Notes under the pieces: model-generated | Database searches by the model: none | What the model was told of the DNA's origin: nothing | Seen by the model: the letters and a program-made list of their open reading frames with translations, nothing else | Position numbers and translations under genes: made by a program | Shown here: positions 10,606 to 31,201 of the stretch, in pieces | How the letters are laid out: every line of letters starts with the position of its first letter | How positions within the stretch are numbered: the stretch's first letter is position 1 | Assembly (NCBI GenBank): GCA_965552055.1 | Contig: CBEVQO010000002.1 | Coordinates: forward strand, 103,229-167,228 | Length of the DNA: 64,000 bases | Direction of reading: 5' to 3' | Source of the DNA: an uncultured bacterium | GTDB lineage: Bacteria > Hydrothermota > UBA3073 > NMUJ01 > CBEVQO01

Positions 10606-10687
10606 GGTTCCCCCTTCACCTTATTTTACATCAAATACAGCGTTGTCAATATCATTTTTTATTAGTTTAGAGAAAGATGCACGCAAA

Positions 10688-12504: not shown

Positions 12505-12533
12505 TTATTACCTATTTCTCAAGTTTTCTTACA
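12505..12533 (-). promoter_or_regulatory. Candidate ECF promoter TGTAAG-N16-GTAATAA upstream of the ClpX-like gene
   Basis: One of five same-spaced copies in the island. Confidence 0.65.
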
Positions 12534-15365
12534 TAACTTTTCTAAATTTCCAAACAAATTTGTTTTCCTTTCTTTGATGGAAGAATGATGTATCTCCAGT
12601 AGTTTTGAAATATCTTCTTCTGTGATCAAATAAACACGATTGCGTGCCCTTGTTACGGCAGTATAAAGCATCTCACGGGTTAAAAAACTTTTGCTTAATC
12701 CTTTTGGAATTACAACTATCACATTGTCAAAATCACTACCCTGACTCTTATGGATGGTAATCGCATAAGCGTAATCAAGTTGTGAGAATTCATTTCTCTT
12801 ATATTTAACCTCCCGATTTAAACAATGAAAATATATTTTCCGCTTTTTCACATAGATTTCTTTATCTTTCACATAGCCTATCATACCATTGAAAACCCAT
12901 TTATCATAATTATTTACATTTTGGATAACCTTATCCTTTATTTTTTCTCTACACCAGAAATCATTCACATACATTTCGTCCTTCAATTCATCTGGTATAA
13001 ATTTTGATTCACTCCTTATAAAATGATTTATCAATAAAGATGAAATTCTTCCTTTTTGACGGGTAGGTGTCAAAATTTCGAGTGCATCTTTTATGACCTC
13101 AAATTCAAAGAAATCGCCTTCACCATACTCTTCCATTATAACTTCTATTGCTTTTTCGATTTCTCCTTTTATATCTCCTTTCCCTATATGTTTAACAGTA
13201 ACAACGGGTTTTCCTTCCTCATTTTTCAAACTATAAATCTCACCTTTAATTTCGTCACCGATTTTTATCCGTTCTTTACTTTGCATCATTTCTCTGAGAA
13301 CTTTAATTTTCTCTCTTTCGGGTACACTTTCGAGGAAAAGTTTTGAGAATTCGGTTATTTTCTTTTGATTTGCTCTATAAATTTTACTCAATTCAACTAT
13401 TTTGCCTTTTCCTGTATTTTTAAAGAAATTGTAAATATCATGAAATGGCTTGCCTGCCTCTACCGGGGGCAATTGATTTACATCTCCCACAAATATAATG
13501 TGTTCCAGTGTATGCTTTTTTATTATCCTGAATAAATCTGCAAGCAATGATGTGCCAACCATTGATGCCTCATCAATTATGAGTGCATGTATAGACAATT
13601 TTTTATCTTCTGGTATTCTCCTTTTTAAAACATAATAATCAAAATCAAAAAATTCTTTCATCTCTTGGGCAATCAATCTATGAATTGTTGTTGCTTTTTC
13701 TCCTCCTATTTCTTTATTTATTTTTACAGTTGCTTTACCTGTTGGAGCCACGATTCTAACTTTTGCAAGTCCATTTATCTGCAATGTATTTACTATTGCC
13801 CCAATTGTATGTGTCTTACCGCTCCCAGCAGGTCCAGTCAAAATACTAACATTAGAACTCAATACCTCTCTTACTGCTGATATTTGCTCCAAATCAAATT
13901 TATCATCTTCGGGATACCTGTAGCCGATAGTGCCTTTTTTGAGTAATTCCTTTATCATTTCTTCTATTAGTTTTTCATCTTCTTTTACATCCTTCAAAGT
14001 AAAAATAATATCTTCTTCTCTTCTCTCAATTTCTACCTTTTCTCTGATGTAATCTTCGTATTGAGTAATCTTTTCAATAAAAGTATCAATGTCCATCGAA
14101 AGTTTTTCTCCTTTTTCCTTTAAATCGTTTAATGTAATAGAGGTATTGCCTTTTTTGAGTTCCTCTTTTAAAATCTTTATGAGTAAAGCCCTTATTCTTT
14201 CTTTTGAGTAAGGAGAATAAAATCTTTTTCTGTATTTTTGCTCCCAGTTGTCTATCTCATCAAATGTTATAGGATGAATATCTTCTTTTGGATTGTAAAT
14301 CATTTCTTCGCACAATAAATAAGGATTATTCTTTTCAACGAGATTTTTAATGTTTATAAAATTCTTTCTGATTTGTTTCTTTATCTCTACCAGTTGTGAT
14401 GGTAAAATTTCGTAATAAATTGCATAATCGTATAAGAATTTATGGAAATTATCGTTTTTGTGTATGATTTTTTCAAGTTCTTTTCTCATTTCTTCTTCAC
14501 CTTCTTCTCCTTTTTCTTCCCATTTTGTAATGAATTGGGAGTATATTTCTCCAAAAGGCTCTTTGCCTTCCTTCAGCACATACATAACCGCTGGTAAGCC
14601 CGGATAAATAAATTTTCTGCCCTCAAGTTCCTCCAGTGCCATCTGAATCCGTGCAGGAAATTCTTCAAGCCTTAAAGCATCTTTTCTGAAATCCATATCT
14701 TCAATATATGCTTTTAGTTTCCCATCATCGTATTGTAAGATTTTCTCCAATTTTTTCAACGCCTCTTTAAGTATAACACATGAAATTTCTGTTACAACGA
14801 AGTTTGCCATATTGCTAAAATATAACTTCCATTCGGGTCTAATATCAAGAACAAGGTCATCGGGAAAATCCTTGCCATATTCTTCAAAGTATTCTATCAT
14901 CTCCTGATACGGAAGGATAAAAATTATATCTTCGGGCTTGAACTCAAAATCTATGAGTAACCCCTTTTTATCTTCTTTTAATTTTATATCGGAAGCTTTT
15001 GCACATCCTACTATTATTCTATTTTCGGAAAGTGGATTTTCACGGCAATAAAAGAATAAATAAGTACCTTTACCCATCCTGCTTAAAAATTGATAAGTTT
15101 CTTCTTTTCTTAATCCTTTTATTCCGAAAAATTTACTGCTTCCTTTAAATTCACTGAAGAGTCCTATTTCCCATACACAAGCTTCCCAGTTTAATGGAGG
15201 TTTTTTATCGGCAAATTCACCGCATCTTAATCTATCTCTGCTATATTTTCCGCGTCTTATATGCGAAAATGATTCGCAATATTTATTCGCTAGCGGATTC
15301 CTGCAAATCCGCCCATTCCAGCCACTATCATGCCAGCATATAAGTATGGTAAGACATTTCATCAT
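12519..15365 (-). CDS. RecD2-like SF1B helicase with Cys-containing WHDSGWNG N-terminal domain
   Basis: GPAGSGKT, APTGKA, IIDEASM, GDVNQLPPV, YAITIHKSQGS, LYTAVTRA; start at ATG 15365 after GGAGG. Confidence 0.9.
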   Translation of the reverse strand: MMKCLTILICWHDSGWNGRICRNPLANKYCESFSHIRRGKYSRDRLRCGEFADKKPPLNWEACVWEIGLFSEFKGSSKFFGIKGLRKEETYQFLSRMGKGTYLFFYCRENPLSENRIIVGCAKASDIKLKEDKKGLLIDFEFKPEDIIFILPYQEMIEYFEEYGKDFPDDLVLDIRPEWKLYFSNMANFVVTEISCVILKEALKKLEKILQYDDGKLKAYIEDMDFRKDALRLEEFPARIQMALEELEGRKFIYPGLPAVMYVLKEGKEPFGEIYSQFITKWEEKGEEGEEEMRKELEKIIHKNDNFHKFLYDYAIYYEILPSQLVEIKKQIRKNFINIKNLVEKNNPYLLCEEMIYNPKEDIHPITFDEIDNWEQKYRKRFYSPYSKERIRALLIKILKEELKKGNTSITLNDLKEKGEKLSMDIDTFIEKITQYEDYIREKVEIERREEDIIFTLKDVKEDEKLIEEMIKELLKKGTIGYRYPEDDKFDLEQISAVREVLSSNVSILTGPAGSGKTHTIGAIVNTLQINGLAKVRIVAPTGKATVKINKEIGGEKATTIHRLIAQEMKEFFDFDYYVLKRRIPEDKKLSIHALIIDEASMVGTSLLADLFRIIKKHTLEHIIFVGDVNQLPPVEAGKPFHDIYNFFKNTGKGKIVELSKIYRANQKKITEFSKLFLESVPEREKIKVLREMMQSKERIKIGDEIKGEIYSLKNEEGKPVVTVKHIGKGDIKGEIEKAIEVIMEEYGEGDFFEFEVIKDALEILTPTRQKGRISSLLINHFIRSESKFIPDELKDEMYVNDFWCREKIKDKVIQNVNNYDKWVFNGMIGYVKDKEIYVKKRKIYFHCLNREVKYKRNEFSQLDYAYAITIHKSQGSDFDNVIVVIPKGLSKSFLTREMLYTAVTRARNRVYLITEEDISKLLEIHHSSIKERKTNLFGNLEKLCKKT

Positions 15366-15396
15366 AGCGGCACCTCCATTACTATCTTCTCTCCTT

Positions 15397-16095
15397 TCAA
15401 ATATCCAAAAATTTTGTCGTTCGTTTGACAGCGTTTTCAATCTCTCTCATATCCTGTGCTGTTAGCGGAGGAGAATATATACCCCTTACCACCCACAATC
15501 CCGATTTTCTTATTTCCCATTTCGGAGAATGTAACCCAAGCCAGTTAGAGGAAGGTTTACATAGCGAACAATTTGCCAAAGTACCTATGAGCTTGTTTTC
15601 TATCTCTTTCCTGTTGCTTTCATTATCCCATAAAATAAACCTGAAACTGAATTGAGTGCGCAATATTTGGGTTATTTTTTCTTCTATTTCTTTCTCTTTT
15701 TCAATATCTCTCAAGTGACCGAATCTCTCTCGATTTTTTCTTGGAGTAAAATCAATTTCCCATACTTCGAGATATGGGTCGTTTTCTCGATTCAACAATG
15801 CCCTGCCTAAATTTTTTCTAAAGATACTTCTATCGGAAGGTTTCGGTTTATTTCTATTCCATTCTGTTCTCCTATTTATAAGAAAATGGTCAGCGATGCG
15901 TGATTTAAAATTTTCTTTCTTATGTGTGCCAACACGAACAATCCTCATCTTTTCGCCACCATGTCCCCATTTCTCTCCTTCTTCATAGAAAAAATAAATT
16001 CCACTATCGGGTAGTGTAACAATATCAAAAGGATACTTTATTACAGGTAGTGTCTCCAGAATTTCATGTAACCATTTACATTTTTCTTCTATCAT
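15397..16095 (-). CDS. GIY-YIG-like nuclease
   Basis: SGIYFFYE...IVRVGTH...KSRIADHF...EIENKLI. Confidence 0.65.
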   Translation of the reverse strand: MIEEKCKWLHEILETLPVIKYPFDIVTLPDSGIYFFYEEGEKWGHGGEKMRIVRVGTHKKENFKSRIADHFLINRRTEWNRNKPKPSDRSIFRKNLGRALLNRENDPYLEVWEIDFTPRKNRERFGHLRDIEKEKEIEEKITQILRTQFSFRFILWDNESNRKEIENKLIGTLANCSLCKPSSNWLGLHSPKWEIRKSGLWVVRGIYSPPLTAQDMREIENAVKRTTKFLDI

Positions 16096-16119
16096 CGTTC
16101 CTCCTTATTATTAAATCTT

Positions 16120-16326
16120 TTATTCCTGTTCGACTTTGGGTTCCCAATTTCCGCACACTTCGTTATCTCTCCTTTTATCCTGCCAGTATCCGCACCAGCC
16201 CTCTGCAGATGTTTCGCCCTCTTCACAGGTAACTTCAATATACCCTGTCGCAGGATTGTAGTAACTGCCACTAAAATATTTGCAAGTAGCACAACATCTT
16301 ATATCTGGTCTGATTGAATAACGCAT
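16120..16326 (-). CDS. Small Cys/Trp-rich putative metal-binding protein
   Basis: CCATCKYF...C...GWC...CGNW; TAATG coupling and GGAGG RBS. Confidence 0.65.
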   Translation of the reverse strand: MRYSIRPDIRCCATCKYFSGSYYNPATGYIEVTCEEGETSAEGWCGYWQDKRRDNEVCGNWEPKVEQE

Positions 16327-17102
16327 TACCCCTCCTTTTTTATTTTTACAAGTTTTTCACCTATTTCCTTTATCCCCAATTTTTCAAAATATTTAATGAT
16401 TTCGCTCGGTGTCAGGGGTGCTATCTGCCATATTAAACTATCAAGATGCAACATTGTTATTCTTTTATCGTTTTTCCTGATTTCAGTTAAAATCTCTGTC
16501 CATACTTGCCTTATTTCTTCATCCGATTGTATGCCAAATAACTCTTTGGTAAATTTTCTGACCCTTGAATCAACCGGAATGGGAATCGGTGTAAAATCAA
16601 AATTGTGCTCACCTTTTATTAACAGTGCGATACCGAGGCATTTCATCGCAAAACAAATTGTTTTCGCAGATTTATTCTGCCCCATTATAAAAGCAAGTTT
16701 ATTCCATATATTCAGGAAATCTGTTGCAATACTTTGTGGAGTGCTTTCCCATATTTCTCTTGCAAGTTCACTTCTAAAATATTTTTCAAGGCGATTTAAT
16801 TTTGCTGTTCTCATTCTTTCATTTTCGTAGAATCTTGCAAGATAAAGATGAAGTTCTTTTAATGTGGAAGGTGCAGGTAGATTCTGGAGTTTCTGTCTTA
16901 TCACGGGCCAGTATGCTATTTCTGCTTTGCCTTTTAGCTGATAATCATTCAGTCCCACAGCGAGCATAAGATTTGCGAATGCACCGAATTTGTATCTGTC
17001 AGCAAATATGTGAAGATGCTTCCACTCGGGCTCATTATGTACAATGCTGTCCCATGCATTATAAGGTATTTGACCCAATATTTTGGCAATTTCTCCTTTC
17101 AT
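16326..17102 (-). CDS. Archaeal-type 8-oxoguanine N-glycosylase/DNA lyase (AGOG family)
   Basis: DYQLKGKAE..YW, KTICFAMK, IPIPVDSRV, LHLDSLIW. Confidence 0.82.
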   Translation of the reverse strand: MKGEIAKILGQIPYNAWDSIVHNEPEWKHLHIFADRYKFGAFANLMLAVGLNDYQLKGKAEIAYWPVIRQKLQNLPAPSTLKELHLYLARFYENERMRTAKLNRLEKYFRSELAREIWESTPQSIATDFLNIWNKLAFIMGQNKSAKTICFAMKCLGIALLIKGEHNFDFTPIPIPVDSRVRKFTKELFGIQSDEEIRQVWTEILTEIRKNDKRITMLHLDSLIWQIAPLTPSEIIKYFEKLGIKEIGEKLVKIKKEG

Positions 17103-17114
17103 TTCACCCCTCTT

Positions 17115-20100
17115 TTATTTAAATTTTATTTCTTTTACTTTTTTATCCGATACATCGTAAAACTCAATCACTTCTAATCGAGGGAATTTTTCTTTTGTTA
17201 TTTTACTCACATCGCAATCTTCATCAACTTTTAATCTTTTTATATTTTTAGGTAATTTTTCGGGGTCAATTGAACTAATTTTTATCGGCCAAACTCTCCT
17301 CATATCAACTTCTTCTACTTCATCAAGTTTACTTAAATCAATATCATGCGCACCTATTCTTTTAACACTTCGAGGTATAACATCGTAGGTTAACTTCTTT
17401 AAAGGTGTTTTCCTAACATCAAGTTCTTCAAGTTCTTCCATTCCGCTCAAATCTATTTCTCTCAAATTTTCACATCTATAAGCATCTATCCTTTTCACTC
17501 TCTTTGGTAACTTTCTGTAATCAAGAGAGGTTATGGAAGTCCAGCTTACATCAAGTTCTTCAATCTCTTCAAGTTCACTCAAATCTATATCACCTGCTCC
17601 TATTTTCTTTACACTACGCGGTATAACATAATAGGTCAACTTCTTTAAAGGGGTTTCCCTTACATCAAGCACTTCAAGTCCTTCCACCCCGCTCAAATCT
17701 ATTTCTCTCAAATTTTCGCACCGCCAAGCATCTATCCTTTTCACTCTCTTTGGTAACTTCCTGTAATCAAGAGAAGTTATGGAAGTCCATCTTACATCAA
17801 GCTCTTCAAGTTCTTCCATTCCACTCAAATTCATTTCTCTCAGATTTTTGCATCCGGAAGCATTTATCCGCCTCACTCTCTTTGGTAACTTTCTGTAATC
17901 AAGAGAGGTTATGGAAGTCCTGCTTACATCAAGTTCTTCAATCTCTTCGAGTTCACTTAAATCTATATCACCTGCTCCTATTTTCTTCACACTGCGGGGT
18001 ATAACATCATAGGTCAACTTCTTTAAAGATGTTTCCCTAACATCAAGCTCTTCGATTCCTTCAATCCTGCTCAAATCTATTTCTTTCAGATTTTCGCACT
18101 CATAGACATCTATCCTTTTCACTCTCTTTGGCAATTTCCTGTAATCAAGAGAGGTTACGGAAGTCCTGCTTATATTAAGTTCCGCAAGTCCTTCCATTCC
18201 ACTCAAATCTATTTCTCTTAGATTTTGGCAGTAAGAAGCATCTATCCTTTTTACTTTCTCTGGTAACTTTCTGTAATCAAGAGAGGTTATGGAAGTCCAG
18301 CTTACGTCAAGTTCTTCAAGTTCTTCAAGTTCACTCAAATCTATATCACCTGCTCCTATTTTCTTTACACTGCGGGGTATAACATCATAGGTCAACTTCT
18401 TTAAAGGTGTTTCCTTCACATCAAGTTTTTCAAGCCCTTCAATTCCACTCAAATCTATTTCTCTCAAATTTTTACACTTGGAGGCATATATCATTTTCAC
18501 TCTCTTTGGCAATTTATTAAGAGAAGTTATGGAAGTCCTGCTTACATCAAGTTCTTCAAGCCCTTCCATCCTACTCAAATCTATTTTTATCAGATTTTCG
18601 CACCGACGAGCATCTATCCTTTTAACTTTCTTTGGTAATTTCTTGTAATTAAGAGAAGTTATGGAAGTCCTACTCACATCAAGTACTTCAAGTTCTTCCA
18701 TTCTGCTCAAATCTATTCCTTTCAAATTTTCGCAGTCGGAAGCATTTATCATTTTCACTCTTTTCGGTAACTTCCTGTAATCAAGAGAGGTTATGGGAGT
18801 CTCATTTACATAAAGTTCTTCAAGTTCTTCCATTCCGCTCAAATCTATTTCTCTCAAATTTTCGCATTCAGGGGCATGCATCATTTTCACTCTCTTTGGT
18901 AACTTCCTGTAATCAAGAGAGGTTATGGGAGTCCAGCTTACATCAAGCACTTCAAGTTCTTCAAGTTCACTCAAATCTATATCACCTGCTCCTATTATCT
19001 TCACACTTCGAGGTATAACATCATAGGTCAGCTTCTTTAAATGTGTTTCCCTCACATCAAGCACTTCAAGTCCTTCAATTCCACTCAAATCTATTTCTCT
19101 CAGATTTTTGCAGTAAGAAGCATCTATCATTTTCACTCTCTTTGGTAACTTTCTGTAATCAAGAGAGGTTATGGAAGTCACGCTTACATCAAGTTCATCA
19201 AGTTCTTCGAGCTTTTCAATTCCACTCAAATCTATTTCTCTGAGATTTTCGCACCACGAAGCATCTATCTTTTTCACTCTTTTTGGTAATTTCTTGTAAT
19301 CAAGAGAGGTTATGGAAGTCCTGCTTACATCAAGTTCTTCAATCTCTTCAAGTTCACTTAAATCTATATCACCTGCTCCTATTTTCTTCACACTGCGAGG
19401 TATAACATCATAGGTCAACTTCTTTAAAGGTGTTTCCCTCACATCAAGTTCTTCAAGCCCTTCAATTCCGCTCAAATCTATTTCTTTCAAATTTTCGCAG
19501 TCGGAAGCATTTATCTTTTTCACTCTTTTTGGTAATTTCCGGTAATCAAGAGAGGTTATGGAAGTCCCGCTTACATTAAGTGTTTCAAGTTCTTTCATTC
19601 CACTCAAATCTATTTCTCTGAGATTTTTGCATCCAGAAGCATCTATCCATTTCACTCTCTTTGGTAATTTCTTAAGAGAGGTTATGGAAGTCCTACTCAC
19701 ATTAAGCACTTCGAGTTCTTCCACCCCGCTCAAATCTATTTCTTTCAAATTTTCGCAGTCGGAAGCATTTATCTTTTTCACTCTTTTTGGTAATTTCCGG
19801 TAATCAAGAGAGGTTATGGAAGTCCCGCTTACATTAAGTGTTTCAAGTTCTTTCATTCCACTCAAATCTATTTCTCTGAGATTTTTGCATCCAGAAGCAT
19901 CTATCCATTTCACTCTCTTTGGTAATTTCTTAAGAGAGGTTATGGAAGTCCTACTCACATTAAGCACTTCGAGTTCTTCCATTCCGCTCAAATCTATTTC
20001 TTTCAAATTTTCGCACCACGAAGCATCTATCTTTTTCACTCTCTTTGGTGACTTTCTGTAATCAAGAGAGGTTATGGAAGTCCCGCTTACATTAAGTTCT

Positions 20101-20474
20101 TCAAGTTCTTCAAATTCACTCAAATCTATTTCACCTGCTCTTATTCTCTTCACACTTCGAGGTATGACATCACAGGTCAACTTCTTTAAAGGTGTTTCTC
20201 TCACATCAAGTTCTTCAAGTTCTTCCATTCCGCTCAAATCTATTTCTCTCAAATTTTCGCATCCATAAGCATCTATCTTTTTCACTCTCTTTGGTAACTT
20301 TCTGTAATCAAGAGAGGTTATAGAAGTCTCGCTCACATCAAGTTCCTTAATTTCTTCGAGTTTATGCAGGTCATCGCTTTCATACACTTCTGCATCTTCT
20401 ATACGCAATTCTCTAATGAATTCATCCCATACCACTTTGACTCCCCACTTTTTCAAAAATTCTTCCATTTTCAT
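17115..20474 (-). CDS. Large cytoplasmic leucine-rich-repeat protein
   Basis: 17 A-type units (LEELDVSxTSITSL..KLPKRVKxIDAxxCxNLxEIDLS) and 7 B-type units (LDVRETPLKKLTYDVIPRSVKKIGAGDIDLS); no signal peptide. Confidence 0.92.
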   Translation of the reverse strand: MKMEEFLKKWGVKVVWDEFIRELRIEDAEVYESDDLHKLEEIKELDVSETSITSLDYRKLPKRVKKIDAYGCENLREIDLSGMEELEELDVRETPLKKLTCDVIPRSVKRIRAGEIDLSEFEELEELNVSGTSITSLDYRKSPKRVKKIDASWCENLKEIDLSGMEELEVLNVSRTSITSLKKLPKRVKWIDASGCKNLREIDLSGMKELETLNVSGTSITSLDYRKLPKRVKKINASDCENLKEIDLSGVEELEVLNVSRTSITSLKKLPKRVKWIDASGCKNLREIDLSGMKELETLNVSGTSITSLDYRKLPKRVKKINASDCENLKEIDLSGIEGLEELDVRETPLKKLTYDVIPRSVKKIGAGDIDLSELEEIEELDVSRTSITSLDYKKLPKRVKKIDASWCENLREIDLSGIEKLEELDELDVSVTSITSLDYRKLPKRVKMIDASYCKNLREIDLSGIEGLEVLDVRETHLKKLTYDVIPRSVKIIGAGDIDLSELEELEVLDVSWTPITSLDYRKLPKRVKMMHAPECENLREIDLSGMEELEELYVNETPITSLDYRKLPKRVKMINASDCENLKGIDLSRMEELEVLDVSRTSITSLNYKKLPKKVKRIDARRCENLIKIDLSRMEGLEELDVSRTSITSLNKLPKRVKMIYASKCKNLREIDLSGIEGLEKLDVKETPLKKLTYDVIPRSVKKIGAGDIDLSELEELEELDVSWTSITSLDYRKLPEKVKRIDASYCQNLREIDLSGMEGLAELNISRTSVTSLDYRKLPKRVKRIDVYECENLKEIDLSRIEGIEELDVRETSLKKLTYDVIPRSVKKIGAGDIDLSELEEIEELDVSRTSITSLDYRKLPKRVRRINASGCKNLREMNLSGMEELEELDVRWTSITSLDYRKLPKRVKRIDAWRCENLREIDLSGVEGLEVLDVRETPLKKLTYYVIPRSVKKIGAGDIDLSELEEIEELDVSWTSITSLDYRKLPKRVKRIDAYRCENLREIDLSGMEELEELDVRKTPLKKLTYDVIPRSVKRIGAHDIDLSKLDEVEEVDMRRVWPIKISSIDPEKLPKNIKRLKVDEDCDVSKITKEKFPRLEVIEFYDVSDKKVKEIKFK
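19468..19983. repeat. Near-perfect 258-bp tandem duplication inside the LRR gene
   Basis: Sequence at 19468 recurs at 19726; antisense shadow ORFs 19558 and 19816 are offset by 258. Confidence 0.85.
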
Positions 20475-20487
20475 TTTACCCCTCCCA

Positions 20488-23036: not shown

Positions 23037-23057
23037 AACCCCTCCTTTTAACTTAAA

Positions 23058-23636
23058 TCACACAATATTTAACCTTAACAAATAGTAATAATCTCCTATT
23101 ATGCTTAAGCATAAAGCAAATGTATTGATATCATCGGTATCCTTTCCGAACAACTTTGACATAAGTTTAGAAATTTCTCTATAATTATATATTTTCTTAC
23201 CGCGCTTGAAATTATAAATTTCATTCAATTTAACATGTGTAAAAATTGTTTTCTTTGTTAGGATATTCATTACAGTTTTAGTTATCCCTGAATGAGTGAT
23301 TTCAAAATGATATAATTCGTTTTTCTTTTCATCGATATAATAATCGGTAGCGGCTTTTGCAGGCCAGATGATAATTGTATTCGTTATCGTTTTTATGATA
23401 TTTATTCTGGAAACAATGTATTTGAATATCCTTCTTGATAAAATCAATTGGGAGAAACTTCTTACAGGGAGTATCCATACGATGACACCTTCTATATTTC
23501 CCGAGATTTTATTCTTTTTAAGATAAATTTTGTAATCTTTTTTCATCAGCGGTAGAATCAGAAAATAAAGTATTCTTATGAGAACTGTCTCCACAGCTTT
23601 AAACAAGTTTGCCATTATAATGTTTTTTAACTTCAT
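23058..23636 (-). CDS. Hypothetical protein
   Basis: ORF with AAGGAGG RBS. Confidence 0.6.
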   Translation of the reverse strand: MKLKNIIMANLFKAVETVLIRILYFLILPLMKKDYKIYLKKNKISGNIEGVIVWILPVRSFSQLILSRRIFKYIVSRINIIKTITNTIIIWPAKAATDYYIDEKKNELYHFEITHSGITKTVMNILTKKTIFTHVKLNEIYNFKRGKKIYNYREISKLMSKLFGKDTDDINTFALCLSIIGDYYYLLRLNIV

Positions 23637-23689
23637 TTCACCCTCCTTTTATTGCCCGCCCCGATGGGGCAAGATTTAAATTCTATAAC

Positions 23690-23914
23690 TTATGCACTTT
23701 TCTTATTGATTTTTGCTGCAATAGAAGCGAGCATCGCTATTATCACACCAGGTAAGGAAAATAAGAGCATCCAGAGTGCTTTACCATAATCGTACACAGC
23801 ATCGGCTACTCCTTTTCCTCCGTAGGGAATATGTACTGCCTCCGAATAAAATGCAATAGAAATTATAAGACAAATAGCGAACCATATCCAACCAATGACA
23901 CTTAATGCTCTCAT
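23690..23914 (-). CDS. Small two-TM membrane protein
   Basis: Two hydrophobic helices; GGAGG RBS. Confidence 0.65.
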   Translation of the reverse strand: MRALSVIGWIWFAICLIISIAFYSEAVHIPYGGKGVADAVYDYGKALWMLLFSLPGVIIAMLASIAAKINKKSA

Positions 23915-23962
23915 CTCCCCCTCCTTCTTATTATTTTAACGCCCCATCGGAGCAGGCAAAAT

Positions 23963-24514
23963 TTATCGTAAACATTCAAATGAACTCAAAACTTTTTTAA
24001 TAAGTTTTTCCATCTCACCGCCTACCGCCTGATGAAGATAATCTGTATTAATCGTCCACCAGACATTATATATTGCAAAAGGTTCAAAATGCAGATAATA
24101 AAATCGTGAATATAAACCAAAAGGATGCAATGTCACCACTAAATGCCATTTCCTATCTTTACTGTCATAAATATAAGAGCGACCTTGAATTATCCAGCCT
24201 TCTATTTTATCGCCAATGCATGCTGCTGCAAGATATTCGGATATAGACTTTTCATCCCATCTTTGTGGTGATGGAAATGAAATTATTCCAATGCATAATC
24301 CATACCTGACAGGTGTTTCATAGTCGCCTACTTTAGCACTATAAACAGTGCCATACGCACCCATGTCAACAGTGCGTTCTGTTTTTACATAAAAGTCAGG
24401 AACCTTTACTTTGAATAAGCCACTCGGATGACGATACCATTTCATATCCACACAGAATGCTCCACTTCCGTCTACAATAAAAATCATAAACAATACTATT
24501 TTTAAATACTTCAT
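23963..24514 (-). CDS. Putative exported hypothetical protein
   Basis: Signal-like N-terminus MKYLKIVLFMIFIV; RBS before ATG 24514. Confidence 0.6.
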   Translation of the reverse strand: MKYLKIVLFMIFIVDGSGAFCVDMKWYRHPSGLFKVKVPDFYVKTERTVDMGAYGTVYSAKVGDYETPVRYGLCIGIISFPSPQRWDEKSISEYLAAACIGDKIEGWIIQGRSYIYDSKDRKWHLVVTLHPFGLYSRFYYLHFEPFAIYNVWWTINTDYLHQAVGGEMEKLIKKVLSSFECLR

Positions 24515-24581
24515 AACCCCCTCCTTCCCCATCGGAGCAGGCAAAATTTACTTTCGATTTTCAAAGAGCTCTCTCAATTAT

Positions 24582-24610
24582 TTATTACTTCTTTCATGTA
24601 TTTTCTTACA
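24582..24610 (-). promoter_or_regulatory. Candidate ECF promoter TGTAAG-N16-GTAATAA
   Basis: Exact motif and spacing. Confidence 0.65.
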
Positions 24611-25250: not shown

Positions 25251-25278
25251 ATCACCTCCTTTTTGCCATCTCATATTT

Positions 25279-25307
25279 ATATTAAACTAAATTACGATTT
25301 TCTTACA
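25279..25307 (-). promoter_or_regulatory. Candidate ECF promoter TGTAAG-N16-TTAATAT (variant)
   Basis: Same -35 and spacing, degenerate -10. Confidence 0.5.
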
Positions 25308-26562
25308 AATCTATTTTCAGAATTAACCAGTCGTTCCTTTTAAAGGGCTTTTCATCTGTCGTTAATAATATTTTTCTTTTAGCTTTTAAATTAAGATATT
25401 TCTTCCATTCTTCGCCTCTCCATAATCCGTCTGTTAGTATTACAAGCATATCCTGTGCTTTTATCCGCTTACTTACTTCAGCGAGCGCTTCTGTAGGGTC
25501 TGTTCCACCCCTACCTTTTATCTTAAAACTCACTTTATTGGTAAATCTCTTAAAACCATAAAATTTAACATCCCAGCATCCCCAGTAAACTTCTGCTTCT
25601 TTGCTCATGCTTTTAATCTCTCCCATAAATTGTTGGAGTTGTTTTTTGTCTATACTTCCACTCGTATCTAAAAGGACGAAAACCCTGCCCTTTTCGAGAT
25701 ATAATCTCCCTTTCGCATCCGGTACCTTTCTGCTGGGACGCTTCCATGTGGGAATGCAAAAACTCGAAATCCATTCCCTGTAATATGTGCGTAAAAGGCG
25801 TTTCCAGTTTACTTTGCTTTTAAATAGAATATCAACAAGTTCTTCCAAGCCAGCGGGAAGATATCCTGCTGTTTTTGCTAATACCAAAGCACGCCTGAAC
25901 TCATCCCTGATTTTTTCCTTTTCTTCATCTCTGACTCCCGAACCCTCGCTAGGATATTTCTTTTCTTCTCCTCCGGCTCCTGAACCCTCGCTAGGATATT
26001 TCTTTTCTTCTCCTCCGGCTCCTGAACTCTCATCTCCTAAATCCTTGCGAGGATAAAGGTCGCTTCCTTTTATAATATTAAGGATACGGTCTATTCTTAT
26101 TTTTCCCGATTTTACCTTTGATAATAATTCTTTGTAAATTTCTTCGGTACTCATCCTTTTTATTTCATATACGGATTTTCCAATCAATTGAGCGATTGTA
26201 AAAGGAGTTATTTCCCTGTAAGATAGTTTGAAATTAAGTTCATCTAAGTATTGATTGACTTTGCAATCGGCTGCTATATTCCATAGCAGGGCATCTATTT
26301 CATCCAGATTTTTTATCCTTTCGCAGTGTTCAAGCACTATATGAAGCAACTCGTGAAATAATAATTTAACGCCTTCTGCAATTGTGTGAATTTTTGATGT
26401 ATTCAAAAAGATTTCCAATCCATTCGTATAAGCCGGAACTTCAGATTCTTCGTCTATTCTTAGATATTTCTGAACCTTCCACAACACAGGGACAAAAAAG
26501 GGAAATAATACAGAACTAATTTCAATCGCTGCTTCAAATATGCTTTTCAACAGGTTGCTCAT
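25303..26562 (-). CDS. DUF2201-type metallopeptidase plus vWA-like domain protein
   Basis: AYTNG, FHELLHIVLEH (HExxH), WNIAADCKVN, LLDTSGSI (MIDAS), GRGGTD, ILTDG. Confidence 0.88.
   Translation of the reverse strand: MSNLLKSIFEAAIEISSVLFPFFVPVLWKVQKYLRIDEESEVPAYTNGLEIFLNTSKIHTIAEGVKLLFHELLHIVLEHCERIKNLDEIDALLWNIAADCKVNQYLDELNFKLSYREITPFTIAQLIGKSVYEIKRMSTEEIYKELLSKVKSGKIRIDRILNIIKGSDLYPRKDLGDESSGAGGEEKKYPSEGSGAGGEEKKYPSEGSGVRDEEKEKIRDEFRRALVLAKTAGYLPAGLEELVDILFKSKVNWKRLLRTYYREWISSFCIPTWKRPSRKVPDAKGRLYLEKGRVFVLLDTSGSIDKKQLQQFMGEIKSMSKEAEVYWGCWDVKFYGFKRFTNKVSFKIKGRGGTDPTEALAEVSKRIKAQDMLVILTDGLWRGEEWKKYLNLKAKRKILLTTDEKPFKRNDWLILKIDL
25940..26027. repeat. 42-bp in-frame tandem duplication in the inter-domain linker
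   Basis: Encodes SGAGGEEKKYPSEG twice. Confidence 0.9.
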
Positions 26563-26574
26563 AATACCTCCTTT

Positions 26575-27708
26575 TTACCATTCTTTTTTAAACTTTGCAA
26601 CTTTTGTTCCTAAATCTTTAATTAATTCTTTGAGAGATGTATCTATCATTTTGAGCATTTCTTCGTAAATTTCTCTCCTCTTTTTGACTGGCAACATCCT
26701 GAAGAAAAGAGAAAGAGTAAGCATCACCATTTCTCTGTCCTCAGAAAGAGCAGGAATGAAAATCACTTCCTCAATTTTCTTATATTTTTCAGGGAAATTT
26801 TTTAACAAATAGTGAGCAAGATGTGTGAAAAAGAGATATTTTATATCCATCGTTTTCAATTTATCTCCGGGATATTTTTTATTCTTAATACACTCTTCTA
26901 TATCCGGGAAATTCCTTGTTACTTTGATAAACTGATAAAATTTACTTCCAACTTCGCCTCCCAAAAATGCCTGACAATCTTCTTCGTAATACTTTTCATT
27001 TTTGTTTAGAAATTCGCTGAGCATCGTCCAGCTTCTTGGAGTCGGATAAGGTTCTACAGCTGTACCCGAATCAGGTGGTTTGTAAAAATCCTCCGGAAAC
27101 TTCATCAAATATGCTATTACATTGGGGTTAGTTCTCTCTTTTGTTGACTCATAAGAAATCCATTCTTTAACGGTGGCAGGTTCAACTTCATATACTGCTG
27201 CGCGATTCATTATCGGAGTGGCTAATTCTGTTGCTACATCGCTGTATTCCGGGGGATTGCCTGCACCCACCACCATTACATCGGGATGAAGTTTCAACCA
27301 TCCAACTCTTTTATCCAGCAACAATTTGAATAAAATGCTCTGTACATCGGGACGCAATGTGTTAGATATTTCATCCAGAAATAATACACCCGGACACTTA
27401 CTTAATGCATGCAATGGTCTGTTATACTTGAACTGAAGCTTTCCATCATTTTCACGGGGTATAAAGAAATCTTCCTGTGTAACCTCATATAATCTAATAT
27501 CGAGCAAGATAAAGGAATTTTTAATTTCTCCGTCGGACAAACTATCATCCCACTCCAGATATTTCAATCCCATCTCTTTTGCTTTTTGTTCTGCAAATTC
27601 ATGAACCTGCTCAGATTTACCGATACCAGGACCTCCAAATAGTATCACAGTGCGAGGATAATGACGATTGAGTGTCTCCAATACACGATTTATTTTTAAT
27701 TTCTTCAT
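26575..27708 (-). CDS. MoxR-like AAA+ ATPase
   Basis: GGPGIGKS, LFLDEI, GAGNP, PTPRSW; start 27708 after RBS. Confidence 0.88.
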   Translation of the reverse strand: MKKLKINRVLETLNRHYPRTVILFGGPGIGKSEQVHEFAEQKAKEMGLKYLEWDDSLSDGEIKNSFILLDIRLYEVTQEDFFIPRENDGKLQFKYNRPLHALSKCPGVLFLDEISNTLRPDVQSILFKLLLDKRVGWLKLHPDVMVVGAGNPPEYSDVATELATPIMNRAAVYEVEPATVKEWISYESTKERTNPNVIAYLMKFPEDFYKPPDSGTAVEPYPTPRSWTMLSEFLNKNEKYYEEDCQAFLGGEVGSKFYQFIKVTRNFPDIEECIKNKKYPGDKLKTMDIKYLFFTHLAHYLLKNFPEKYKKIEEVIFIPALSEDREMVMLTLSLFFRMLPVKKRREIYEEMLKMIDTSLKELIKDLGTKVAKFKKEW

Positions 27709-27721
27709 AACACCCCCCAGC

Positions 27722-28192
27722 TTATTGAAAGAGGCAAATAAAAGATGCAATTGATGTGAGCCTGTCATTTAAATTGTTAAGAATTGAGGTGACATCTCTT
27801 TTTAATTCTTCTTTACTCTTGATATTCTTCTTCCATATCATAAAATAAGTTGAAATTATTTTGATTGAATAACCTTTCACTCCGAGAGATTTGTATATAT
27901 CTTGCATTATACAACCTCTTATGTCCTTATTTTGAAATGAACCCATGTATTTGCTGAAAAGATAAATCAGTTTTTCGAATTCAATTGTGAGAAATACTTT
28001 GTAGTGCTCTCGCTTCACAATCCACATTATAAGTTGAGTATCGTATCCAAATTGTTTCAGCAGAGTTTGTTTAACTTGAATCTCATATCCATTTTCTCCC
28101 AGTAATTTACCTGTTAAATCGAAAGGAAACTGAACCTTTGATTCCAAATCATGCATAATTTCTCTCATTTCACACTGTAATTGCTTAATCAT
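27722..28192 (-). CDS. Hypothetical protein (paralog of 28217-28714)
   Basis: IVKR...CI..DIY..L..KGY pattern shared with neighbour; GGAGG RBS. Confidence 0.6.
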   Translation of the reverse strand: MIKQLQCEMREIMHDLESKVQFPFDLTGKLLGENGYEIQVKQTLLKQFGYDTQLIMWIVKREHYKVFLTIEFEKLIYLFSKYMGSFQNKDIRGCIMQDIYKSLGVKGYSIKIISTYFMIWKKNIKSKEELKRDVTSILNNLNDRLTSIASFICLFQ

Positions 28193-28216
28193 AACACCTC
28201 CTTTAAATTTATAATT

Positions 28217-28714
28217 TTAGCCGTAAGCCCGTTGTTGATATAATATCATCATAATATCGTTGAGAACCGAGATGCAAAATTGTTTCACTTTTGTTTCACT
28301 ATATATATCTCTTGCTATACGGAGGAAACCCTTTCCAACATCAACTTTATAACCTCTTAATTTAAGCCGGTTATATATTTCCCCCAAAATGCATCTTTTT
28401 ACATTTTTGATTACTTTCTTTATTTTTTTCTCTTCCTTTTTATCTTTAATTTTTATCACTGCATTTGGACAGCCAACTGCAACCCATATTCTATAAATCT
28501 TGGACCTTTTAACAATGCGAAGCATAATCCGGGCAGTGATGTTGAAATCAGGGAAATTAATCAACACGGTGGATTTACCATCAATCTGAAAATCCGAGCT
28601 GTTATCACCAAGCTGGCATATTGTAAGGCAAGGTGGGTTCTTAACACCCAGATATATCGCACGCATAATCCTTGCCCCGGCTCCAAAGCACAAAAAATCA
28701 TGCATACGAAACAT
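28217..28714 (-). CDS. Hypothetical protein (paralog of 27722-28192)
   Basis: IVKR...CILGEIYNRLKLRGY; RBS before ATG 28714. Confidence 0.6.
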   Translation of the reverse strand: MFRMHDFLCFGAGARIMRAIYLGVKNPPCLTICQLGDNSSDFQIDGKSTVLINFPDFNITARIMLRIVKRSKIYRIWVAVGCPNAVIKIKDKKEEKKIKKVIKNVKRCILGEIYNRLKLRGYKVDVGKGFLRIARDIYSETKVKQFCISVLNDIMMILYQQRAYG

Positions 28715-28738
28715 AACACCCCCCTTGTTTCTCATTAA

Positions 28739-28767
28739 TTATTACTGCTTTTGATTATTTTCTTACA
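28739..28767 (-). promoter_or_regulatory. Candidate ECF promoter TGTAAG-N16-GTAATAA
   Basis: Exact motif and spacing. Confidence 0.65.
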
Positions 28768-29989
28768 AATCTATTTTCAAAATTGTCCAGTCATTTCTCC
28801 TGAAAGGTTTTTTACTCGTAGTCAAAAGCAATTTTCTTTTCGCATTTATATTAAGATATTTTTTCCACTCATTTCCATACCATTCCCCATCCGTAAGAAT
28901 TACAAGCATATCATGTGGTTTTATAACTTTTTTAACTTCCTTTAAAGCTTTTGTAGGGTCTGTTCCACCTCTCCCTCTTATCTTGAATTTTGTTTCACTA
29001 TTTTTTACCTTTTGCAAACCGTAGAAATCAACATCCCAGCATCCCCAGTAAACTTCTGCATCCTTATTCATAGTTTTTATCTCAGCCATAAACTGTTCAA
29101 GTTCAGCATGCCCGATACTACCGCTTGTATCTACGAGTACATAAACTTTACCTTTTCCCAAATATAATTTGCCTTTGACATCGGGAACTTTTCTGCTCGG
29201 ACGCTTCCATGTTGATACACAAAAATGAGATATCCATTCACGGAAATATGTACGCAAAAATCTCTTCCAGTTTATCTTGCTTTTGTCTTTTGCATCCACA
29301 ACCTCTTCCATCTTTGCTGCTACATTGCCAGCACTCTTCAGCGCTTCTGTTATACCCCGCCTAATTTCATCAAGGTCTATATCTTCAAATTGATTTCCCA
29401 CACCTGCTCCCTCTTCACATTCTTCCATATCTTCATCTACTTCAATAACTTCAGGTATGCATCCACTTGATAAACATTCCAGTAAATCCCAATCTACTTC
29501 TTTTAATCTACCTCGACATTTTTTTACAATCTTTATCTCATGAATCTTCACTACTTCGGCGAGTTTTAAATAAATTTGTTCTGTTGTCATTTTCTCTATT
29601 TGCTGTGGAGAAAAGCCAGTTAATCCTTCAATGATTCTCGCTGTTTGCATATCCTTCGTCTTTAAACCGAGTTTTGACATTATTGCATTCACTTTACAAT
29701 CTGCTGCAAGATTCCACAATAATCTATTTCTTTTATCCATAAATTTCAATCTTAAAGGATGTTCAAGAATATAATGGAAGAAAACATGCAAAAAATTTAT
29801 GCATTCTTCTCCTGTGCTTAACCTCTCGGGGTTTACCCTTATTATCCTGCCATCTGTCTTTACAGGTGTGTCCATTTCTCTATCTTCTACAACTGCTTTT
29901 TCAACCCTGTATAATGCTGGCAAAAGAAAATGTGCTTTGGAAACCGTTAATAATTGCCTTACCTTTTTAATTAATGTTGCGGTATCCAT
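28763..29989 (-). CDS. DUF2201-type vWA protein with degenerate peptidase motif
   Basis: KTDG, FLHVFFHYILEH (no catalytic Glu), WNLAADCKVN, VDTSGSI, GRGGTD. Confidence 0.87.
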   Translation of the reverse strand: MDTATLIKKVRQLLTVSKAHFLLPALYRVEKAVVEDREMDTPVKTDGRIIRVNPERLSTGEECINFLHVFFHYILEHPLRLKFMDKRNRLLWNLAADCKVNAIMSKLGLKTKDMQTARIIEGLTGFSPQQIEKMTTEQIYLKLAEVVKIHEIKIVKKCRGRLKEVDWDLLECLSSGCIPEVIEVDEDMEECEEGAGVGNQFEDIDLDEIRRGITEALKSAGNVAAKMEEVVDAKDKSKINWKRFLRTYFREWISHFCVSTWKRPSRKVPDVKGKLYLGKGKVYVLVDTSGSIGHAELEQFMAEIKTMNKDAEVYWGCWDVDFYGLQKVKNSETKFKIRGRGGTDPTKALKEVKKVIKPHDMLVILTDGEWYGNEWKKYLNINAKRKLLLTTSKKPFRRNDWTILKIDL

Positions 29990-30001
29990 TTTTACCTCCC
30001 G

Positions 30002-31108
30002 CTATGTTGCGATTAACTCATCTGCGGATTCAATTCTACTGCTCAATAATTCTCTAAGTTCTACATGCATTATCTGGAGTATCTTCTCTATCTCATCTTT
30101 TTTCCATCCTTTTAAAATTGCGTGCAATGTAACTACAAGAAATTCTTTATTTCTTTTCAGCATGCGTAGCAGGATTTTATTTTCAACTTCTTTATACCTG
30201 TCTGGATGTTTCCTCACCCACATTGCCACATGGAAAGCAAAATTATATAATTTATCTATTGAATTTATCGTATGTAGTTTTAGCGGATTCTTCAAAATAT
30301 CTTCAACCGATGGTATCCTATATCTCGTTGATAAGAAAAAGTTACTCCCCACTTCTCCTCCCAGGAATGCCTGACAATCTGCTTCAGTGAAATCCGGATT
30401 GTTATTCAGGAAGCAGGATAAAAGTGTCCAGCTTCTAGGTGTAGGATAAGGTTCTGATGTTGCTCCTTTTTGCGGTGGCAGATAAAAATGCTCCGGATGT
30501 TTCAATAAATAAGTGGCGACATAGTGATTGAGGCGACCCTTCTCTGTTTCATAAGAAATCCATTCTTTAACACTTACATGCTCCACCTCATATATGGCTG
30601 CACGGTTCATTATCGGAGTGGCTAACTCCGTTGCTACTTCGCTGTATTCGGGTGGATTACCCGCACCTATAACCATCACATCTTTATGAAGCTTTAGCCA
30701 TCCAACTCTTTTATCGAGTAACAATTTAAACAAAATGCTCTGCACATCCGGGCGAACGGTATTTGAGATTTCATCAAGGAAAAGCACACCGGGATGTTGA
30801 CCCAAAGCTCTCAGAGGTCTGTTATATTTGAAAACTATGCCGTCAGAAGTTTCACGGGGAATAAAGAAATCTTCGGGAGTAACTTCATACAATCTCATAT
30901 CCAGAAGTATAAATGCATTCTTTAAATCTCCTTCTGTAAGCCTATCATCCCATTCCACAAAGTTCAGTCCCAATTTCTCTGCTTTCTCCCTGGCAAACTC
31001 CCTAACCTGTTCGGATTTGCCGATGCCAGGTCCACCAAAGAATATCACCGTCCCGGGAAAATGTTTATGCAGGGTTTCTTTTATCTCATTTACCTTGATT
31101 TTAACCAT
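30002..31108 (-). CDS. MoxR-like AAA+ ATPase (paralog of 26575-27708)
   Basis: GGPGIGKS, LFLDEI, GAGNP, PTPRSW. Confidence 0.88.
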   Translation of the reverse strand: MVKIKVNEIKETLHKHFPGTVIFFGGPGIGKSEQVREFAREKAEKLGLNFVEWDDRLTEGDLKNAFILLDMRLYEVTPEDFFIPRETSDGIVFKYNRPLRALGQHPGVLFLDEISNTVRPDVQSILFKLLLDKRVGWLKLHKDVMVIGAGNPPEYSEVATELATPIMNRAAIYEVEHVSVKEWISYETEKGRLNHYVATYLLKHPEHFYLPPQKGATSEPYPTPRSWTLLSCFLNNNPDFTEADCQAFLGGEVGSNFFLSTRYRIPSVEDILKNPLKLHTINSIDKLYNFAFHVAMWVRKHPDRYKEVENKILLRMLKRNKEFLVVTLHAILKGWKKDEIEKILQIMHVELRELLSSRIESADELIAT

Positions 31109-31134
31109 ATCACCCCCTTATGCTACTTCATTAA

Positions 31135-31163
31135 TATTTACCCTCTTTTACAAATTTCTTACA
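31135..31163 (-). promoter_or_regulatory. Candidate ECF promoter TGTAAG-N16-GTAAATA at the head of the island
   Basis: Same -35 and spacing as the other copies; upstream of first island gene. Confidence 0.6.
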
Positions 31164-31201
31164 AATTTTTGTTGACAAAAGAATAATTTGTTTAATATTC
31201 T

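Follow-up and report, generated by a model that had tools for sequence, protein, structure and literature searches.

The window analysed here, a stretch of 64,000 nucleotides (nt) of contig CBEVQO010000002.1 from an uncultured vent bacterium (assembly of 2,226,318 bases in 15 contigs, approximately 36% G+C), carries a gene island in which a bipartite motif, TGTAAG-N16-GTAATAA, recurs upstream of several genes. From position 31108 to approximately position 286, at the left end of the window, all genes are encoded on the minus strand and are separated by small gaps. In the order of this strand, the island opens with a MoxR-like AAA_5 ATPase, a protein of the von Willebrand factor A (vWA)-like type with DUF2201_N and DUF2201 domains, two small hypothetical proteins and a second AAA_5-vWA pair. 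There follow further hypotheticals, an AAA protein of 394 amino acids (aa), a 226-aa sigma-like protein with a 228-aa anti-sigma-like neighbour, a 1119-aa leucine-rich repeat (LRR) protein and an AGOG-like glycosylase; then a 232-aa protein, a 973-aa RecD-like helicase, a ClpX-like AAA_2 protein, a 130-aa protein, a 300-aa sigma-like protein and a 220-aa zf-HC2 protein; and lastly a 178-aa protein, a 699-aa helicase, two small proteins, a CHAT-TPR protein and an RmuC-like protein. The G+C content of the island is 34.6%, that of the genome 35.6%.

An earlier note on this DNA had listed five sites of the motif, and their coordinates and sequences proved exact, as did the 16-nt spacer at all five and the A-tract that follows TGTAAG (AAAA at four sites, AAAT at one). 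The exact pattern occurs three times in the window, compared with a mean of 0.02 in dinucleotide-preserving shuffles, and none of 100 shuffles reached three; the motif is thus not equally common at random positions. When up to two mismatches were allowed, 12 matches were found in the window, including the degenerate copies at 25279 and 31135, against a shuffle mean of 2.88 and with 0 of 100 shuffles reaching 12. In the whole genome, the exact pattern has three occurrences, which are the same three island sites, all on the minus strand and within 16.3 kb of 2.23 Mb. A looser form, TGTAAGAA-N14-NTAA, is found 14 times in the genome, with five of these occurrences in the island.

A scoring matrix was built from the five first-listed sites and applied to the 4,451,796 positions of the genome. 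The five sites scored 25.3–30.7 bits and the next-best position of the genome 19.8 bits, so that the enrichment anticipated for a genome-wide scan is indeed seen in the island. That best match outside the island was discarded as a site; it lies inside the open reading frame of a membrane protein, SecF-like by reading alone. In leave-one-out scoring, each exact site was equalled or beaten solely by itself and the other two exact sites (3 of 4,451,796 positions), and equal or higher scores were reached at 33 of these positions for site 31135 and at 55 for site 25279, for which the paralogue at 28739 had also been omitted. By this scoring, the two degenerate copies are genuine outliers. A repeat finder run without prior information on the motif also recovered its sites, as families D11 and D17.

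Upstream regions of 99 nt were then scored for 30 island starts, 25 of which belong to genes that had not been used for the matrix. This search yielded a sixth, weaker copy (11393–11421) with a score of 17.0 bits, an addition to the five sites already noted. For comparison, when 3000 windows were taken at random from the genome, their best-of-99 scores reached 9.7 bits at the 99th percentile and 19.5 bits at most, and the next-best scores among the 25 genes were 11.2 and 9.8 bits. The extended consensus of the motif is TTTGTAAGAAAA-N12-rGTAATAA. Its spacer measures 16 nt in six of six copies and is free in sequence, and three copies are identical in all 13 letters of the two boxes, in agreement with the bipartite anatomy and fixed spacer length that had been proposed. 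We regard it as virtually certain that the motif is a real cis-element.

All six copies lie on the coding strand, 16–67 nt upstream of an ATG preceded by a Shine-Dalgarno sequence, and the downstream starts at 31108, 28714, 25250, 24514 and 12488 were set by strong, GGAGG-like Shine-Dalgarno sequences. The distances collected in Table 1 agree with the assertion that the five noted sites stand on the minus strand, always 5' of an island gene. The TAA of TGTAAG coincides, as had been reported, with the stop codon of the upstream gene at three sites (24606–24608, 25303–25305 and 28763–28765). Because this holds for three copies only, with a stop codon in the spacer of copy 5, no upstream gene on its own strand for copy 1 and coding sequence around copy 6, the relation of the motif to a stop codon is not constant, whereas its relation to a downstream start is. 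From the second box to the Shine-Dalgarno sequence the distance ranges from 3 to more than 50 nt. Copy 1 is placed back to back with a housekeeping-type promoter of a divergent plus-strand gene.

Table 1. Coordinates of the motif copies, sigma-like and anti-sigma-like genes, housekeeping-type promoters and other features (window positions).
Feature	Position	Strand	Description
Motif copy 1	31135..31163	-	TGTAAGAAAT-N12-GTAAATA; divergent intergenic region; 26 nt 5' of ATG 31108, first MoxR-like AAA gene
Motif copy 2	28739..28767	-	Exact; TAA is the stop of DUF2201/vWA gene 1; 24 nt 5' of ATG 28714, 165-aa hypothetical
Motif copy 3	25279..25307	-	Second box degenerate, TTAATAT; TAA is the stop of DUF2201/vWA gene 2; 28 nt 5' of ATG 25250, 214-aa hypothetical
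Motif copy 4	24582..24610	-	Exact; TAA is the stop of the 214-aa gene; 67 nt 5' of ATG 24514, 183-aa hypothetical
Motif copy 5	12505..12533	-	Exact; spacer holds the TGA stop of the 973-aa RecD-like helicase; 16 nt 5' of ATG 12488, ClpX-like AAA gene
Candidate motif copy 6	11393..11421	-	TGTAAAAAAT-N12-GTAAAAA; within the 3' end of the ClpX-like gene; 24 nt 5' of ATG 11368, 130-aa hypothetical
Sigma-like protein, 226 aa (215 aa if ATG 21818)	21171..21851	-	TIGR02937; candidate reader of the motif
Anti-sigma-like protein, 228 aa	20488..21174	-	4-nt overlap with the sigma-like gene; paralogue of the zf-HC2 protein; zf-HC2 13.4 bits
Sigma-like protein, 300 aa	9703..10605	-	TIGR02937; second candidate reader of the motif
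Anti-sigma factor-like protein, 220 aa	9051..9713	-	zf-HC2 PF13490, 32.1 bits (cut-off 22.2)
Housekeeping-type promoter, CHAT-TPR gene	5555..5581	-	TTGACA-N15-TATAAT, 12/12
Housekeeping-type promoter, 300-aa sigma-like gene	10623..10649	-	TTGACA-N15-TAAAAT, 11/12
Housekeeping-type promoter, directly 5' of 226-aa sigma-like gene	21854..21880	-	TTGACA-N15-TAAAAT, 11/12
Housekeeping-type promoter, divergent plus-strand gene	31172..31198	+	TTGACA-N15-TAATAT, 10/12
Genes behind copies 1 and 2	25303..31108	-	MoxR-like AAA_5 (30002-31108, 26575-27768); DUF2201_N+DUF2201 vWA-like (28763-29989, 25303-26562); two small hypotheticals
Co-directional run behind copy 4	12519..24514	-	Hypotheticals, 394-aa AAA, sigma/anti-sigma-like pair, LRR, AGOG-like, 232-aa (PDC-M57B), 973-aa RecD-like (PDC-S68)
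CHAT-TPR protein, 658 aa	3572..5548	-	CHAT domain first (PF12770, E 1.7e-16), then TPR repeats (many TPR families)

The caution that the copies at 28739 and 25279 sit at the ends of paralogous vWA genes, and may not be independent, was justified, their first box being common by descent. DUF2201/vWA genes 1 and 2 encode proteins that are 51% identical (206 of 403 aligned residues) and are themselves 59% identical in DNA. Their last 23 nt, comprising the final codons, the stop, 8 nt of spacer and the first box, are identical and form the second-longest identical run in the 1.3-kb alignment. Beyond these 23 nt the two paralogues keep solely TAATA, at the position of the second box, a pattern of conservation that looks, on comparison of the letters, like a footprint. 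The flanks and neighbour genes of copies 1, 4, 5 and 6 are unrelated.

The housekeeping promoter of the genome, with the consensus TTGACA-N15-TATAAT, provided an internal control. Across the whole genome, TTGACA-Nx-TATAAT matches of 11–12 of 12 letters numbered 47 with N14, 341 with N15, 89 with N16, 57 with N17 and 55 with N18, and perfect matches of 12/12 numbered 7, 121, 27, 7 and 4, respectively. Inspection by eye upstream of the 46 transfer RNA (tRNA) genes revealed a uniform CTTGACA ... TATAAT at many of them; many tRNA genes carry CTTGACAAAtt...ATTTTGnATATAAT. The housekeeping spacing is sharply 15 nt by plain hexamer counting, an unusually uniform promoter in an uncultured lineage; the usual spacer optimum elsewhere is 17 nt. 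Promoters of this type precede the CHAT-TPR gene and the sigma-like gene starting at 10605, as the earlier note had claimed, and, in addition, the second sigma-like gene, starting at 21851. The motif sites are not of the housekeeping type, with 18 nt from TTGTAA to TAATAA. As far as promoters are concerned, the arrangement fits the proposed sensor-on/effector-inducible layout, with the sigma-like genes and the CHAT gene on housekeeping-type promoters and the other modules on the private motif.

To judge from its protein sequences, the island encodes two divergent extracytoplasmic function (ECF)-like sigma/anti-sigma pairs. The 300-aa protein matched TIGR02937 with 42.2 bits (E 6.1e-11, profile positions 27–164 of 165) and the 226-aa protein with 33.8 bits (E 2.4e-8, profile positions 37–163), both scores being below the curated cut-off of 42.9 and both matches spanning regions 2 to 4. 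Sigma70_r4_2 gave 24.4 bits in the 300-aa protein (cut-off 25.7) and was not found in the 226-aa protein. The two sigma-like proteins are distant paralogues, 25–27% identical in two segments, and their neighbours of 228 and 220 aa are paralogues as well (29% identity, E 2e-15). In the alignment of the sigma-like proteins, the presumed recognition helices are alike (NYVSRIL and NYVDQII), and both sigmas might for this reason read the motif.

A complex predicted for the 226-aa protein and residues 1–100 of its neighbour scored 0.82 (median of three runs), compared with 0.00 for the best control; a mark of this kind was reached by 51 of 78 solved complexes and by 2 of 108 mismatched pairs. The runs had at least 76% of their contacts in common, and the partner showed a predicted local distance difference test (pLDDT) value of at least 82. 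In the model, the partner touches residues 29–90 and 148–218 of the sigma-like protein, i.e. its N- and C-terminal halves, and these predicted contacts resemble an anti-sigma domain seated between regions 2 and 4. The result is support rather than proof, as it indicates likeness and not binding, and likeness to solved sigma/anti-sigma complexes may explain it.

Searches for relatives of the sigma-like proteins were largely empty. The 226-aa protein has no relative but itself among 5.77 billion proteins; in 41 related genomes it was recovered from its own genome and as one weak match (E 3.9e-5), and nothing was found in viral contigs. Likewise, the 300-aa protein has no relative but itself among 1.84 billion representatives, and PDB sequence searches returned nothing relevant. 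Look-alikes in a protein atlas include clusters named sigma-70 (0.96–0.97), which are leads only. Elsewhere, the genome encodes five conventional sigma-70 family genes above the TIGR02937 cut-off and two more divergent sigma-like genes; inspected by eye, the sequence upstream of its canonical sigma genes displayed no instructive ECF motif.

Some further features of the sigma-like proteins and of their counterparts elsewhere in the genome were observed. Both island proteins start with a common C-x2-C-x4-C pattern (CYRCKDESC and CHNCDLDAC) before the sigma-like part, a possible metal-binding extension. A second locus (G000:C2:352604-356001; L146:6605-10002, minus strand) combines a 237-aa divergent sigma-like gene (TIGR02937 E 5.7e-10, below the cut-off) with genes for a 143-aa Ig-like protein and a 765-aa TPR-CHAT protein in which the TPR repeats come first; its sigma-like gene is preceded by a promoter-like site TTGACA ... 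TAAAAT. A fourth divergent sigma-like gene is located at G000:C10:68651-69106.

Taking the motif and its gene context together, we consider it very probable that the motif is a transcription signal, and we assign a probability of roughly 0.5 to its being read by one of the island's own sigma factors. This link between sigma and motif is one that we infer, because neither sigma-like protein has a detectable relative and the motif clusters nowhere else that was searched. According to the preferred reading, the six sites would be internal promoters private to the island, read by RNA polymerase carrying a divergent ECF-like sigma factor, which could be either the 226-aa (21171–21851) or the 300-aa protein (9703–10605), the two not being distinguishable. 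TGTAAG with its A-tract would represent the -35 element, bound by sigma domain 4, and rGTAAT, 15–16 nt downstream, the -10 element, bound by domain 2, with transcripts beginning a few bases 3' of GTAATAA. The anatomy fits a promoter in that the two boxes are set at a fixed spacing, the copies are nearly identical and a homopolymer tract adjoins the first box.

Both sigma/anti-sigma pairs and the CHAT-TPR protease would be made constantly from housekeeping promoters, each sigma being held by its own zf-HC2-type partner. Release of the sigma would then switch on five or six transcription units, namely the first MoxR-vWA pair; the hypotheticals with the second MoxR-vWA pair; the 214-aa gene; the run from the 183-aa gene to the helicase; the ClpX-like gene; and the 130-aa gene. 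The 183-aa gene behind copy 4 heads a gene run that includes the 226-aa sigma-like gene, and no convincing terminator was found on the minus strand within this run (12519–24514).

Several observations weigh against this assignment. The boxes TGTAAG and rGTAAT are without the letters usual for ECF promoters, where the first box has AAC and the second CGT or GTC. Both sigma-like proteins remain below the curated family cut-off, Pfam searches found no Sigma70_r2 in either of them even at E values up to 5, and AlphaFold2 run without an alignment gave mean pLDDT values of 52.6 and 38.2, too poor to judge the fold. Of the six first boxes, just four owe nothing to paralogy or to the matrix built here, and the leader behind copy 5 would be only about 10 nt long, because no more than 16 nt separate the motif from the ATG. 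The motif does not stand immediately upstream of either sigma-like gene (best scores within 99 nt upstream, 0.2 and 0.6 bits), both have housekeeping-type promoters, and approximately half of ECF sigmas autoregulate (PMC7776599, in excerpt). Feedback on the 226-aa gene would need read-through from copy 4, which stands 2.7 kb upstream of it in the same run. The A-tract is not the same element as the T-tract of Bacillus subtilis ECF promoters, because an A-for-T swap (T5 to A5) abolished their activity (PMC5758882, in excerpt). Finally, the second box is a direct and nearly identical repeat of the first, the exact copies having GTAAGAA and GTAATAA, an arrangement more characteristic of operators bound by regulators than of -35 and -10 elements.

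Because of these direct repeats, the main rival explanation is that the sites are operators for an island-encoded DNA-binding regulator, maybe one of the hypotheticals. Such a regulator would bind two direct repeats GTAAnAA, two helical turns apart, and, where weak core promoters overlap the second box, would activate or repress transcription by the housekeeping polymerase. The arrangement of the repeats, with 6 of 7 letters shared in the exact copies and a distance of 21 nt from start to start, fits binding on one helix face; TGTAAAAA is present twice in copy 6, copies 1 and 3 have an extra GTAA 11 nt after the first, and the TA-rich second box with its following letters could hold a weak -10 element. 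However, no island protein besides the sigma-like ones has a recognisable regulator domain, the sites lack a strong TTGACA-like element 15 nt before the TA-rich hexamers (save for a match of 10/12 at copy 2), and the two sigma/anti-sigma pairs of the island would be left without targets. We consider operators possible, though unlikely.

Weak housekeeping (sigma-A) promoters are an improbable explanation of the sites, as is AT-rich intergenic sequence of merely bipartite appearance, no dedicated factor being involved in either case. TTGTAA does match TTGACA in 4 of 6 letters, TAATAA is TA-rich, and the N15 match at copy 2 mentioned above is an overlap of the expected kind, the sole one at the motif sites. 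Nevertheless, the spacing of 18 nt departs from the sharp 15 nt of this genome, and a standard sigma-70 scan with 16–18 nt spacing, which overall returned 68 sites against 66.9 in shuffles, i.e. no excess, had no motif site among the best 60 of its 68 rows. Nor does AT-richness explain why the exact 13 letters recur solely in the island, given the shuffles described above.

A signal acting in a long polycistronic RNA, whether for processing, for recognition by an RNA-binding protein or for stop/re-initiation, would suit the co-directional arrangement of the genes from 31108 to approximately 286, with its few gaps, as well as the use of the first-box TAA as an upstream stop in three of six copies and the presence of the second-box TAA in frame with it 21 nt later. 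This explanation is poorly compatible with copy 1, which has no upstream gene, with copy 5, whose stop lies in the spacer and in another frame, with copy 6, which is in a coding region, and with the varying distance to the Shine-Dalgarno sequence. Moreover, the six regions exhibited no shared or unusually stable fold (z-scores 0.14, -1.41, -0.47, 0.31, 0.87 and 0.48), and no Rfam family matched within positions 1–34000 at E up to 0.1, so that an RNA-level signal also appears improbable. That the copies are functionless leftovers of segmental duplication within the island is the least credible of these alternatives: it would account for copies 2 and 3 behind the paralogous vWA genes, but not for the four copies with unrelated surroundings, nor for the boxes being the sole letters conserved past the stop in a pair of genes only 59% identical.

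Beyond this genome, TGTAAGAAA-N13-GTAATAA was found in 2 of 272 genomes of the phylum, namely this one (three copies) and one other (one copy); the reversed pattern, used as a control over the same 272 genomes, gave three single matches. The form TGTAAGAAAA-N12-GTAATAA occurs in 21 stretches of viral contigs, with one copy each, and in at least 117 stretches of metagenome contigs, with one copy in each of the 80 matches listed. When 26 island proteins were compared by tblastn with 138 motif-bearing loci, nothing but two generic ClpX-like matches was obtained. Nothing like the island's motif cluster was found elsewhere in the places searched, and the claim that the motif is confined to the island is borne out by the genome scan, the phylum genomes and the viral and metagenome contigs. 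In the literature, no TGTAAG sigma-factor promoter was evident from the titles and abstracts of the papers listed, which is no proof of its absence from print.

Known systems offer partial parallels. Counted in the same way, the spacing between the two elements is 15 nt in the island and 16–17 nt in the ECF promoters of B. subtilis. As predicted for the island, the B. subtilis ECF sigmas are held by a zf-HC2-type anti-sigma encoded alongside; the island differs in that its sigma genes are not directly preceded by the motif and their products fall below the family cut-off. ECF sigmas in general use spacers of 16–18 nt and need near-consensus promoters (PMC7776599, in excerpt). The promoters of B. 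subtilis sigma-W, -X, -M and -V (tgaAACnTTTT ... CGTA/CGTC) share with the island motif a TGnAAn first box with an adjoining homopolymer tract, a second box that includes GTA and a spacer fixed in length but free in sequence, according to excerpts of PMC5758882. By the same excerpts, the island motif departs from them in a first box ending in AAG rather than AAC, a tract of A rather than T and a second box rGTAAT rather than CGTA/CGTC.

In the type III-E locus, an ECF-like sigma is held by Csx30, which is cleaved by a CHAT protease, and three copies of the sigma motif lie inside the locus (PMC10028731, in excerpt). This arrangement of CASP-sigma (RpoE-like), Csx30 and the TPR-CHAT protein Csx29 resembles the island in having, within a defence locus, its own ECF-like sigma, a sigma-binding inhibitor, a CHAT protease and several motif copies, which makes for self-contained regulation (same excerpt). 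The 300-aa protein matched the type III-E sigma model only faintly (E 0.0026, 17.7 bits, cut-off 100). Unlike type III-E, the inhibitor of the island is of the zf-HC2 type and not Csx30, and in its CHAT-TPR protein, a candidate trigger protease, the CHAT domain precedes the TPR repeats.

Phage-encoded sigma factors that have middle or late promoters of their own, such as SPO1 gp28, are likewise orphan and highly divergent, and send polymerase to AT-rich promoters restricted to their element; the island sigmas differ from them in having anti-sigma partners, and a scan of 10 island proteins turned up none for phage structure or packaging. The CalpL-CalpT-CalpS system, composed of a CRISPR-associated Lon protease, an anti-sigma and a sigma, likewise combines, in a defence context, a protease with an anti-sigma and an ECF-like sigma. 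The island protease belongs to another family, and the island, unlike that system, has no cyclic-nucleotide sensor. We know of no private promoter regulon described for CalpL-CalpT-CalpS. PMC10028731 (in excerpt) makes mention of a Lon protease along with CRISPR-T, its partner, and a neighbouring sigma.

Regarding the remaining genes of the island, PADLOC assigned the 232-aa protein to the candidate family PDC-M57B (E 1.4e-64) and both helicases to PDC-S68 (E 1.9e-100 and 3e-105), and the region therefore looks like a defence island. The 178-aa protein (8496–9032) and the 699-aa helicase (6298–8397), whose genes are 98 nt apart, match the N-terminal domain and the helicase part of the 973-aa protein (12519–15440) with 37% and 42% identity, and the domain common to the 178-aa and 973-aa proteins begins with WHDxGWNGxICxNP; the pair is either a split or a broken copy of PDC-S68. 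The two small hypotheticals between the AAA_5-vWA pairs are 24% identical to each other.

For the MoxR-like protein, databases gave 24 relatives at E up to 1e-5. Outside this genome, the nearest of them is 50% identical and located on a 1.6-kb contig, and no relatives were found in viral contigs. Five loci in genomes carry relatives of it, which are archaeal or weak Chloroflexia matches and for this reason cannot serve to footprint a bacterial promoter. The pair formed by the MoxR-like and DUF2201 proteins is very rare in databases, with its nearest genome-resolved relatives in archaea (Hadarchaeales, Thermoproteus), and the MoxR-like and vWA-like proteins match the phage families phrog_1297 and phrog_1314.

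Repeats are present at several places in the island. A 39-nt repeat (82% identical) with TTGCCTGCTCCGATGGGG is located at 23942–23980 and 24527–24565, just 5' of the Shine-Dalgarno sequences of two neighbouring small genes, and a third gene (approximately 23660–23685) shows an inverted, hairpin-forming variant with GCCCCATCGGGGC; neither string is found anywhere else in the genome. The 1119-aa LRR gene (17115–20474) is made of repeats of 126–378 nt, in families D1–D3 and up to 19 copies. Metagenome contigs join across this gene variously, skipping 281 to 2835 nt or going back 2529 nt, which suggests variation in repeat number between strains or assembly collapse. In vWA gene 2, three tandem 42-nt units (25915–26040) encode a repeated SGAGGEEKKYPSEG stretch, and their number varies between strains, because one metagenome contig is without exactly 42 nt (25934–25977). 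Four DNA runs over positions 12000–31300 detected strain variants in short contigs, with 323 differences.

The TGS-domain GTPase encoded at 286–1224, a housekeeping protein, has no relative above 50% identity, its named matches being metagenome-assembled genomes of WOR-3, Aerophobetes, Caldisericia and Poribacteria at 43–50%; because these matches are so distant, the lineage of the organism is a deep and poorly sampled one. No second genome of its family is present among the relatives compared.

A bolder scheme, which we consider rather unlikely, would make the island a CRISPR-independent, protease-gated transcriptional defence switch (Cas7-11, Csx30 and a CRISPR array were not searched for). 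On attack, the CHAT-TPR protein or another sensor would destroy the zf-HC2 anti-sigma, and the freed orphan sigma, with its C-x2-C-x4-C extension, would fire the six AT-rich promoters for the MoxR-vWA, AAA, LRR, helicase and ClpX-like effectors. The second sigma/anti-sigma pair would then represent a second input or a feed-forward step.

ECF-type sigma/anti-sigma systems with their own regulon, also in defence loci, are a known kind; these proteins and these promoter letters are new. Should the motif be read by an island sigma, the island would be a compact, self-contained regulon uniting two orphan sigma/anti-sigma pairs, a private promoter and defence-type genes (PDC-S68, PDC-M57B and MoxR-vWA), with promoter letters unlike any ECF motif that we found described. 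It would add a CRISPR-free example (arrays were not searched for) to the self-switching defence loci that have their own sigma (PMC10028731, in excerpt), and would provide a ready-made orthogonal sigma/promoter pair with six natural promoter variants. Furthermore, because the housekeeping promoter of this bacterium is unusually sharp (TTGACA-N15-TATAAT), promoter maps of an uncultured lineage can be derived from its sequence.

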